Virus record (IMG/VR): IMGVR_UViG_3300028886_000059
Span: 32,001 to 96,000 of that record
Direction: 5' to 3' (one strand)
Source of the DNA: a virus
Taxonomy: Duplodnaviria > Caudoviricetes
DNA: 64,000 nt
Shown: piece after piece, positions 15,430-47,016 of the stretch
Layout: each line of letters begins with the position of its first letter
How positions within the stretch are numbered: position 1 is the stretch's first letter
Program-made: the position numbers and the translations under genes
The notes under the pieces: generated by a model
The model's input: only the letters and a program-made list of their open reading frames with translations
Told to the model about the DNA's origin: nothing
Database searches by the model: none

Positions 15430-15711
15430 CTATACCAGTTGTTTGATTGTATCGTATGCAGCGCGTATTTCATCCGCATGTTCCTTTGCGAACCTGTCAA
15501 AAGCACCTTCACCACCGAAAACCTCATCCAGTCGTGGCATGATGTCACCGATAGGATTCAGCCAAGAGTCTTTTTTGCATTCTTCGGGTGAATAGATGGC
15601 TATCAAACCAGCATTGCCGCCGAAATGCAGACACATGGCGAAATAAGCCGCCAACTTGTTTTCCGCTTCGATTGAGTATTTACTACTCATTGCACCATAT
15701 TCAATTACCAT
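15430..15711 (-). CDS. Hypothetical phage protein
   Basis: 93 aa ORF. Confidence 0.5.
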   Translation of the reverse strand: MVIEYGAMSSKYSIEAENKLAAYFAMCLHFGGNAGLIAIYSPEECKKDSWLNPIGDIMPRLDEVFGGEGAFDRFAKEHADEIRAAYDTIKQLV

Positions 15712-15761
15712 AGCCTTATGTCTTTAAGAATAATATTTTCGTTAATGTTCATGTCCTGTAT

Positions 15762-25282: not shown

Positions 25283-25951
25283 TTAGTTTGAGCCGCCCAA
25301 AGCTGTACGCAAGGCAGCTGCTATCGTATTTCCGCTACCTCGGCGCAATACCCTTTCGCGGTCACTCATCATCCTATCCCAATCATCGTATGTCTTAACC
25401 CTGTCAAGGTTGATTTCCCTGCTTGGGCTATAGCTTCGCATCATTGCCGACAATCCTTTTGGAAGGGTCATGGCAACGACGGGGAGGCGTGTGCGGCCAT
25501 CCCAATCAGACGGTGCTAAATCGTCATCCCATTCTACTTTTCCGATGGCTTTAGCACCATATTTCGCATACATATTCTGTAATCCACCACCATAGCAATC
25601 CAGCTTTCGGCCACCCCTTGCAGAAGCGAATGCCATGATGTTGGGCATCCTTCCGCGTGTCCTGCTGAATACGGCCTCCACATTGCCGTCGCTTGTTATG
25701 GCGAGTCCTGTCTTGTGGTCTTTAGAAAGGTAATAAGCCGTGCCACTGTTACGGTTATTCCTGAACTGTTTCTTTGTATGGGTGTCAACCATCCAGCCGT
25801 GCCTGTTTTTCTTCTTGGCATAGTTGATGGCATTCTTGAAAGCCTTTGGCGTTGCACGTTCAAATTCTACATGAGAATGACGAATACCCTTTCTTGTCAG
25901 GGCATTCTCGACGCGCTTGTTTGCTTTTTCAATATCGCTTATGTACCTGAC
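25283..25951 (-). CDS. GNAT-like protein of the polyvalent-protein type, proposed GTC start
   Basis: Frame open 53 codons upstream of ATG 25792, back to GTC at 25951 directly after an in-frame TGA; GGRKLDCY...MYAKYG...W...AP.DW motif. Confidence 0.65.
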   Translation of the reverse strand, partial: VRYISDIEKANKRVENALTRKGIRHSHVEFERATPKAFKNAINYAKKKNRHGWMVDTHTKKQFRNNRNSGTAYYLSKDHKTGLAITSDGNVEAVFSRTRGRMPNIMAFASARGGRKLDCYGGGLQNMYAKYGAKAIGKVEWDDDLAPSDWDGRTRLPVVAMTLPKGLSAMMRSYSPSREINLDRVKTYDDWDRMMSDRERVLRRGSGNTIAAALRTALGGSN

Positions 25952-25964
25952 TCAGCCGTTCCGT

Positions 25965-26162
25965 TTACATTGTCAAAATATCAGCCATCAATTCAGGGCT
26001 GCTATAATCCATGTCACTATCCAGCGAATCATCGCTGGGGCTGTCTGCCAGTTTTCTTGCCTCATCCTCTGTCAGGTAAGGCTTTCCATTCTCCTTGATT
26101 TTGCAGAGCTCCTCAAAAAGACGCTGGCGATATTCAGCAATCTGTTCTTTCGTATGCTTCAT
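25965..26162 (-). CDS. Small acidic hypothetical protein
   Basis: 65 aa with its own promoter at 26182-26213. Confidence 0.55.
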   Translation of the reverse strand: MKHTKEQIAEYRQRLFEELCKIKENGKPYLTEDEARKLADSPSDDSLDSDMDYSSPELMADILTM

Positions 26163-26329: not shown

Positions 26330-26584
26330 TTAGCCCTCAGAGCCTGCGGCAGCACGAAGGGCGGCGGAGCGCAAGGCTGCACCACGAACACCACGCGCCC
26401 GCATAGCGGCTACGTTCTGACGTGCTTGTCGGGCGAATGCCACACGAAGGTCTTGACGACGCTGTTCACGGTTTCCCCAACCTGCACGGCCAGCCGCATA
26501 ACGGCCACCATTTGCCAGTCGGCGACTACCTGCACCGTTCACGTTTGACGTGATACCAGTGATTCGATTGATTCTGTTTCTGAC
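26330..26584 (-). CDS. Small Arg/Ala/Gly-rich basic protein, proposed GTC start
   Basis: Frame opens at GTC 26584 directly after an in-frame TGA: VRNRINRITGITSNVNGAGSRR...AALRAAAGSEG (84 aa). Confidence 0.65.
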   Translation of the reverse strand, partial: VRNRINRITGITSNVNGAGSRRLANGGRYAAGRAGWGNREQRRQDLRVAFARQARQNVAAMRARGVRGAALRSAALRAAAGSEG

Positions 26585-26617
26585 TCAGCATTCAAATTAA
26601 AGGGTTCGACATTATTG

Positions 26618-27028
26618 TTAGTTGTCTGAATGGGCATCCTGTTCCTCGTCGAAGATTTCACAGTTCTCTTTCTGCATGACTTCGCCGAGTTCATACTGCA
26701 TTTGCGTAACATAGTAGGTCTCGCCGTTATCCACGAAGGTAAGCGGCTCGCCAGTCTTTTCGTCATCCATCTGAACGACCTTAATCCCAACGACCTGCAC
26801 CAGCAGACGGGGGGCATTCTTCTGACGGCCATTGATAAGCTGCAAGGCATCGTAGCCCACAACCTCGACATCGCTTGTGCCGTCGCCGTTGTCCTTTTCC
26901 ACCAAATACTGCTTGGCGTTACGCGGGTAAACAAAGCGGTGCTCGACCTTTTGCTCACCCTTCAAGATTTTCTTGAAACTGTCGCGCTTGATTTGTAGCG
27001 TCAGTACATCTAATCCTTCTAAATTCAT
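26618..27028 (-). CDS. ASCH (PUA-like) domain protein
   Basis: LTLQIK...F..IL.G.QK.EHR motif. Confidence 0.8.
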   Translation of the reverse strand: MNLEGLDVLTLQIKRDSFKKILKGEQKVEHRFVYPRNAKQYLVEKDNGDGTSDVEVVGYDALQLINGRQKNAPRLLVQVVGIKVVQMDDEKTGEPLTFVDNGETYYVTQMQYELGEVMQKENCEIFDEEQDAHSDN

Positions 27029-27061
27029 TTCAATTCCGATTTAATTGTTACTATAATTTTG

Positions 27062-27134
27062 TTGCGGGAGCAGGGCTCGAACCTGCGACCTCCAGTAAGT
27101 CAAACTGTTAAGCTACCAACTGCTCCATCCCGCG
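27062..27134 (-). tRNA. Initiator-type (fMet-like body) tRNA with anticodon GAC
   Basis: CGCGGGA-TG-GAGC-AGTTGGTA-GCTT-A-ACAGT-TTGACTT-ACTGG-AGGTC-GCAGG-TTCGAGC-CCTGC-TCCCGCA-A; C1xA72 mismatch, A11-U24, A73. Confidence 0.85.
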
Positions 27135-46875: not shown

Positions 46876-47016
46876 TCGAGGGAGCAGGGCTCGAACCTGC
46901 GACACACACAATCCATGTGTAACTTCATGTATGCGAGGCTGCTATTCTTGCGCTCGTATTTACAGCCATCCTCCCGTTCCATATACGGGTGTGCTAACCA
47001 ACTACACCATCCCTCT
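46876..47016 (-). ncRNA. tRNA-like RNA with a 72-nt variable region (anticodon position ATG)
   Basis: Complete acceptor, D, anticodon and T arms; insert spans 46901-46972. Confidence 0.7.

Follow-up and report, generated by a model that had tools for sequence, protein, structure and literature searches.

A 64,000-nucleotide (nt) stretch of viral DNA (the window; bases 32001–96000 of IMG/VR record IMGVR_UViG_3300028886_000059, which is 116,414 base pairs (bp) long and rated 98% complete) encodes a tRNA that resembles the bacterial formylmethionine initiator, tRNAfMet, but carries the anticodon GAC. We consider it likely that this phage-encoded tRNA acts as a private initiator of the tRNAfMet type, starting two genes of the window, open reading frames (ORFs) A and B, at GUC, and that its anticodon loop reads a longer word, GAGUC. 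The features concerned are as follows.

27061–27134, minus strand: initiator-type tRNA with anticodon GAC (ARAGORN, tRNA-Val(GAC); Rfam tRNA model, 49 bits)
27097–27103, minus strand: anticodon loop U32 U33 G34 A35 C36 U37 U38 (UUGACUU); A39 lies outside the loop as stem partner of U31
26580–26587, minus strand: start word of ORF B, U G A [G U C] A G, with GTC at 26584–26582 right after an in-frame TGA
25947–25954, minus strand: start word of ORF A, U G A [G U C] A G, with GTC at 25951–25949 right after an in-frame TGA
26330–26584, minus strand: ORF B, Arg/Ala-rich protein of 84 amino acids (aa) (P0002) with a GUC start; first canonical codon GTG, at codon 15
25283–25951, minus strand: ORF A, 222 aa (P0001, phrog_2563); first ATG/GTG/TTG at codon 54

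The preliminary description of this DNA had noted that tRNA positions 32–39 (the loop plus nt 39; UUGACUUA, window 27103 to 27096, minus strand) are complementary to TGAGTCAG at both GUC sites. The antiparallel match indeed holds, with six Watson–Crick and two G-U pairs, as does the odd pyrimidine at position 37, a U that is invariant in the clade. TGAGTCAG occurs twice only, in the window and in the whole record alike, each time on the minus strand. Yet pairing within the window is weak evidence when taken alone: about 2.3 copies of the 8-mer are expected there by chance, and because a U-rich loop (four U's) pairs with any purine, all five flank positions would fit fortuitously about 1 time in 64. 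Moreover, the two sites share the 10-mer GCTGAGTCAG and so count as one event. What goes beyond chance is the placement of the sites, with GTC as the first codon after an in-frame stop, and the alignment of homologs of both ORFs upstream of the first ATG/GTG/TTG. Homologs of ORF B align from residue 1 in G002, G004, G005 and G007 (tblastn); for ORF A, alignments of homologs and of PHROG 2563 start at about codon 11 to codon 33, ahead of codon 54.

Start codons and their flanks in related phages

Relatives were collected from IMG/VR via the ORF A family and the tRNA pattern; a megablast search of the region against GenBank phages gave no match. They fall into three loop classes: the same loop with anticodon GAC (L003, L004/G001), loop UUAACUU with anticodon AAC (G002–G005 and others) and loop UUGGUUC with anticodon GGU (G006, G007). 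L003 is a 99% relative of the window phage, with its tRNA at 2819–2892. Its sole loop change is U32 to C32, and both its start words are TGAGTCAG, as in the window. All-against-all ORF homology was usable for the distant genomes G000 and G001, and noisy among the close AAC genomes, where alternative frames also matched.

Across shared gene families in eight genomes, the start codon changes in step with the anticodon: GTC is found with GAC, GTT with AAC and ACC (one ACT) with GGU, the third base of the start codon tracking nt 34 of the tRNA. Sites homologous to the ORF B start read TGA GTT in phages with the AAC tRNA and TGA ACC in a phage with the GGU tRNA. The gene of the major head protein (phrog_29) opens with ATG in G000, G001 and G006, and G002, G003 and G005 have GTT at the exact homologous codon; the first codon of a 182-aa family shows the same GTT/ATG equivalence. 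For another GTT-opened protein, the alignment to phrog_38535 begins at residue 2. Because anticodon and start codon change together, with ATG at the same codon in other relatives, the GTC sites are, on this comparative evidence, real start sites read by the phage initiator-type tRNA.

To describe the flanks, we used 36 distinct starts at codons cognate to a phage's own tRNA (private starts), drawn from the eight genomes and two further loci by homology alone, with no filter on the flanks. Many are paralogs and hence not independent: about half belong to one small-protein family, and the set amounts to 11 combinations of family and anticodon class. The comparison set was 156 ATG starts of the same genomes (G000–G003, the window genome and relatives).

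Position –3: private starts T 15, C 9, A 12, G 0; ATG starts A 41%, G 35%
Position –2: private starts G 34, C 2; ATG starts G 17%
Position –1: private starts A 33, G 3, pyrimidine 0; ATG starts T 49%, A 25%
GA at –2/–1: private starts 33/36; ATG starts 4.5%
Position +4: private starts A 33; ATG starts A 50%
Position +5: private starts purine 33; ATG starts A 41%, G 15%

The dinucleotide GA thus stands out. Genome-wide, it precedes just 2–8% of all cognate triplets, and in two families with mixed start types it was found in 0/5 ATG orthologs and 6/6 GTT orthologs. This rarity, together with the ortholog comparison, argues that GA is a specific, repeatedly acquired part of the private start signal. 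The enrichment at +4 and +5 is real but becomes weak when the paralogous small-protein family is set aside (A at +4 in 14 of 17 sites), and it resembles the general preference for an A-rich second codon; natural exceptions include the second codons CAG and GAA.

Upstream elements are enriched at private starts as well, so site choice is not left to the tRNA alone. A box resembling CCCTTTAA lies 10–13 nt upstream of ∼13/36 private starts (in the relatives G002–G005 and L006), versus 8% of ATG starts and 2–4% of random windows. GGAGG accompanies ∼13/36 private starts and 3% of ATG starts, many of the relatives' sites lying 6–9 nt behind it. In the window, ORF B has the box only (26597–26604, minus strand, 10 nt upstream of its start word), ORF A has neither element, and GGAGG is absent from both sites. 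The suggestion that loop pairing suits hosts with little use of the Shine–Dalgarno (SD) element is therefore half right, given that about one third of the relatives' private starts stand behind a strong GGAGG.

Genome-wide counts were less telling. The pattern YGAGTYA showed no enrichment over a reversed control; since the motif is used at few sites, this test is uninformative. When ORF-opening sites with GA flanks were counted per codon in all six frames, non-coding frames swamped the count, and the cognate codon was not singled out. A third ORF opened by GAGTCA, at window 9760 (minus strand), was rejected because it lies inside a gene end and crosses a terminator-like hairpin. CGAGTCA also occurs on the plus strand at window 41808.

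Two further conserved ORFs, at G001 19149 (minus strand) and G003 65004 (plus strand), lie downstream of the 182-aa tail-like gene and show homology 20–35 codons before any canonical start. Neither has a cognate private codon, and their position is more suggestive of a tail assembly chaperone extended by frameshifting than of a private start.

The tRNA body and the bases read by its loop

ARAGORN places the GAC anticodon at position 34. The tRNA has a C1×A72 mismatch, G2:C71, C3:G70, A11:U24 and A73, CCA is not encoded, and phage tRNAfMet(CAU) genes share exactly its acceptor stem (CGCGGGA/TCCCGCA). Measured against tRNAfMet, it thus has the unpaired 1:72 and the formylase determinants and lacks the CAU anticodon and the set of three G:C pairs in the anticodon stem. 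One of these three is present (A29-U41, G30-C40, U31-A39), and there is an A27×G43 mismatch in addition. Among 11 relatives, the cloverleaf shows nine compensated pairs and 94% of cells paired, values matched by 0/500 shuffles. Position 1:72 is unpaired in 11/11 through four different mismatches (C-A, C-U, C-C, G-A); A11:U24 and G2:C71 are each kept in 11/11, and C3:G70 in 10/11 (one U-G). The retention of the mismatch through four base combinations, alongside compensated stems, points to selection for an initiator-type acceptor end and not to decay. By these comparisons, the tRNA is under selection as an initiator-type cloverleaf. In the loop, every member of the clade has U33 and U37; position 38 holds U or C, and position 32 holds U (C in L003). 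Nucleotide 39 changes together with nt 31, its partner in the stem (U-A, U-G, C-G).

As pairing predicts, a purine stands at –1 opposite U37 in 36/36 private sites. The ATG starts of these phages are presumably read by the host tRNAfMet, which has A37, and within one genome the two classes of start show opposite preferences at –1 (A versus T). T is what one would expect at ATG starts, because a host initiator with A37 would read –1. Elsewhere in IMG/VR (loci L098–L151), we found many other phage initiator-type tRNAs with a pyrimidine at 37: anticodon CAU with loop UUCAUUC at 20 loci, CAG with loop CUCAGUA at 7 loci, ACU in L105, CCU in L141, and GGU in L107 and L146. The CAG-anticodon initiators, an unrelated lineage with U37, have A at –1 in 4/4 distinct CUG starts, and these loci show SD-positioned AAA/ACA CUG starts on genes of 483, 553 and 995 aa. 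At loci with the tRNA(CAU) whose loop is UUCAUUC, A occupies –1 in 49% of ATG starts, and GA is the top dinucleotide. Behind near-identical GGAGG leaders, L105 (U37) has TGA AGT and L067 (G37) has TGC GTA, each a single site. The distant tRNAs of L067 (UAC, G37 A38) and L072 (CAC, A37 C38) yielded no secure set of start sites, with one SD-positioned GTA candidate. An A37U mutant of E. coli tRNAfMet has been shown to prefer A at –1, and G by wobble (PMC10018350). In comparisons between start classes and between unrelated lineages, the –1 preference thus shifts with nt 37. The covariation that the preliminary description had called for between loop and flanks was borne out to this extent at –1; –3 does not track nt 39.

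A –1:37 reading, then, fits the private starts on the available alignments. A –2:38 pair is plausible: G at –2 suits both U38 (G-U wobble) and C38 (Watson–Crick, in the GGU type). These comparisons point to a start word of four, probably five, letters (GA plus GUC) read by U37 (and U38). Bases 34–38 form the stacked 3′ side of the anticodon loop, so five pairs at most could form without breaking the U-turn or the stem.

We propose that the tRNAfMet-type tRNA with anticodon GAC, charged with valine and formylated, would initiate ORF A and ORF B at GUC. A(–1) would pair with the unusual U37, and G(–2) probably with U38, as G-U in the window phage and as G-C in relatives with C38; the stacked loop bases 34–38 would then read the five-letter word GAGUC. 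A word of this length, combined with the GGAGG or CCCTTTAA-type element found upstream of many sites in relatives, could enable the tRNA to single out a few sites from the thousands of GUC triplets. The longer pairing may also make up for the G:C pairs that the anticodon stem lacks.

Several observations weigh against a five-letter reading. Nucleotides 37 and 38 barely vary in the clade (37 is always U, 38 is U or C), so strict covariation with –1 and –2 rests on the comparison of start classes and of unrelated lineages. A never occurs at –2 opposite U38, though it should suit U38 as well as G does. The CAG-type system, with A38, has A or C at –2 and not U, which implies that a –2:38 pair is not general. 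Two ACC sites have CG at –2/–1. Many of the 36 sites are paralogous, the non-independence noted above. Loop pairing also leaves unexplained why –3 is never G and why –4 and –5 are often C or G, with GC frequent at –5/–4. On the ribosome, mRNA bends between the E and P codons, and to our knowledge a fifth pair has no structural precedent. We infer the physical pairing at –1 and –2, like the amino acid and the formylation, from conservation and complementarity.

Several of these points would be expected if only the triplet were read, with GA and the following A conserved on other grounds: they might contact the ribosome or initiation factors, provide a purine-rich context free of structure, reflect the frequent in-frame TGA that ends the preceding frame, or descend from the leader of small genes that duplicated. 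The absence of A at –2 opposite U38 and of G at –3, the frequent GC at –5/–4, the concentration of about half the sites in one paralogous family, the failure of –2 to complement A38 in the CAG-type system, and the fact that A is also the commonest +4 base at ATG starts all agree with this explanation. But it does not account for a –1 purine opposite U37 in 36/36 sites when ATG starts of the same genomes prefer T, for the new appearance of GA whenever an ortholog goes from ATG to GTT, or for A at –1 accompanying U37 in unrelated lineages; and –1:37 pairing has been demonstrated experimentally for tRNAfMet (PMC10018350). Triplet-only reading is thus a serious rival for –2, +4 and +5 and a poor fit to –1, and overall we judge it unlikely. 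The opposite extreme, put forward in the preliminary description, has positions 32–39 pair with mRNA –3 to +5 as a full 8-bp guide duplex. Both window sites fit at 8/8 positions, C32 of L003 faces G at +5, and +4 is A and +5 a purine in 33/36 sites each. Nevertheless, nt 39 covaries with nt 31 as its stem partner, –3 goes untracked by nt 39 (A stands opposite G39 in about one third of sites), natural starts with C or G at +4 exist, and in the CAG-type system the base at +4 of the CUG starts is G (half of the sites) or A. The 8-bp model also conflicts with loop geometry: U33 makes the U-turn, U33 and U32 lie beyond it, and +4/+5 must stay free for the first elongator tRNA. Position –3 is not read by nt 39, the bases at +4 and +5 look like general second-codon features and are probably not read by nt 33 and 32, and we give the full duplex very little credence.

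Two other explanations dispense with initiation by this tRNA. The GUC sites might not be starts at all, ORF A and ORF B beginning at the downstream ATG (codon 54) and GTG (codon 15), with the tRNA an odd elongator or a decaying copy; gene callers did choose shorter forms (P0003, 169 aa; P0004, starting at V28). This is highly improbable, as homology and the PHROG profile reach well upstream of the canonical codons, in relatives GTT replaces ATG as the opening codon of the head protein, the match to phrog_38535 begins at residue 2 of the GTT-opened protein, and the tRNA keeps its 1:72 mismatch through four base combinations, with compensatory changes in its stems. Alternatively, TGAGTCA, a near-palindrome found in both copies between genes, could be a DNA site for a regulatory protein, unrelated to translation. 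The homologous places in relatives read TGAGTTA, CGAGTTA, AGAGTTA and TGAACCA, none of them palindromic, and every site lies in frame on the coding strand, with a central triplet that matches the tRNA anticodon. The idea of a DNA palindrome, named at the outset as a possible refutation, is excluded because GTT and ACC in relatives break the palindrome and keep frame, strand and flanks; we regard it as close to inconceivable. What stands of the initial proposal, then, is a tRNA of initiator type that appears to select its own sites with the help of bases outside the triplet, namely the near-invariant GA with its –1 purine opposite U37, and what falls is the 8-base guide duplex, with its reading of –3 and, probably, of +4 and +5.

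Genomic setting of the tRNA and its client genes

Two genes with normal ATG starts lie among the elements described above.

26618–27028, minus strand: 136-aa gene (phrog_625), lying between the tRNA and ORF B; in L005, too, this gene comes after the tRNA
25965–26162, minus strand: 65-aa gene between ORF B and ORF A

The 136-aa gene is co-oriented with its neighbours, which places the tRNA and its two client genes in one co-oriented block. The TAA stop of the 65-aa gene lies 10 nt ahead of TGAGTCAG of ORF A, in a different frame. ORF A and ORF B, otherwise unrelated, have similar ends (..AAALRTALGGSN and ..SAALRAAAGSEG; 25283–25320 and 26330–26370, minus strand) and V-R beginnings; the alike ends may be a shared C-terminal signal.

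The closest head proteins come from Bacteroidota phages (Cellulophaga, Riemerella) and from uncultured gut phages. The stretch was found in bovine and sheep gut or rumen metagenomes and also in metatranscriptome contigs, from which transcription, RNA ends and tRNA processing cannot be read. Among the strain differences listed for the sequencing runs, none falls in the motif or the loop, an absence that carries no weight.

Two other unusual tRNAs were seen. At window 46876–47016 (minus strand), a fourth tRNA was picked up by Rfam (40 bits) and missed by ARAGORN; it has a 68-nt insertion at the variable-loop position, an A1×G72 mismatch and the loop AUAUGGA (anticodon AUG, A34), and its T arm matches that of the GAC tRNA exactly. 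Possible identities are a second initiator-like paralog, a tRNA with an intron and a decayed copy. L157 (MT835576.1) is an uncultured phage from the human gut whose head protein is related; according to ARAGORN, one tRNA in a cluster of five there (15647–15721, minus strand) has a four-base anticodon (tggt).

Known systems and biological meaning

The nearest known counterpart is quadruplet pairing, in which the base at position 37 of tRNAfMet reads mRNA –1 (Hollerer and Jeschek 2023, PMC10018350; that paper cites Esposito et al. 2003 for such –1:37 pairing). The pattern of the E. coli A37U tRNA is the same as that of the phage U37 tRNAs (A in 33/36 and G in 3/36 at –1), and the ATG starts of these phages reveal the host's own channel, with A37 and U at –1. 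The phage case differs in being natural and phage-encoded, with a non-AUG anticodon and a near-obligatory preference instead of modest modulation; its reading is also probably one base longer (–2 G opposite U38 or C38).

An engineered E. coli tRNAfMet, G34C36, has the anticodon GAC, is charged by ValRS, is formylated, and initiates at GUC (PMC2268962 and studies cited therein). The phage tRNA shares its anticodon, start codon and acceptor-stem determinants (C1×A72, G2:C71, C3:G70, A11:U24), and by this analogy it is most likely charged with valine and formylated. Whereas the engineered tRNAs have A37 A38 and three stem G:C pairs, the phage tRNA has U37 U38 and one such pair, and it serves a small, defined set of natural genes. 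Its body is nearly identical to those of phage tRNAfMet(CAU) and the bacterial initiator, including the acceptor stem; unlike them, it has a non-CAU anticodon, a pyrimidine at 37, and lacks the conserved G29-G31:C39-C41 pairs. We found no natural phage initiator tRNA with a non-AUG anticodon in the literature. The proposed mechanism is reminiscent of the SD interaction in that RNA–RNA complementarity outside the start codon selects the site, and some of the relatives' private starts have GGAGG in addition. However, the SD element pairs with 16S rRNA, whereas the extra pairing proposed here would involve the tRNA loop and adjoin the codon.

Bacterial start choice is held to rest on one universal initiator tRNA that reads AUG, GUG and UUG. 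Reading of a fourth base was shown recently, as a subtle effect and with engineered tRNAs. The initiator tRNA of this natural virus appears to have been re-targeted, with a loop adapted (U37 U38) to reading further bases upstream, which would yield a near-private start signal. More tentatively, such tRNAs could form an orthogonal initiation channel in phages of Bacteroidota and other hosts, in which bases 34–38 read a five-letter word, a longer helix replaces the stabilising G:C pairs, and the virus decides which genes start and perhaps when. If confirmed, this would mean that the length of the start 'codon' can evolve, and would account for the truncation or omission of phage genes by gene callers, including major capsid genes in relatives. 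It would also make testable how initiator tRNAs without the three G:C pairs still work, and would offer synthetic biology ready-made parts for orthogonal initiation.
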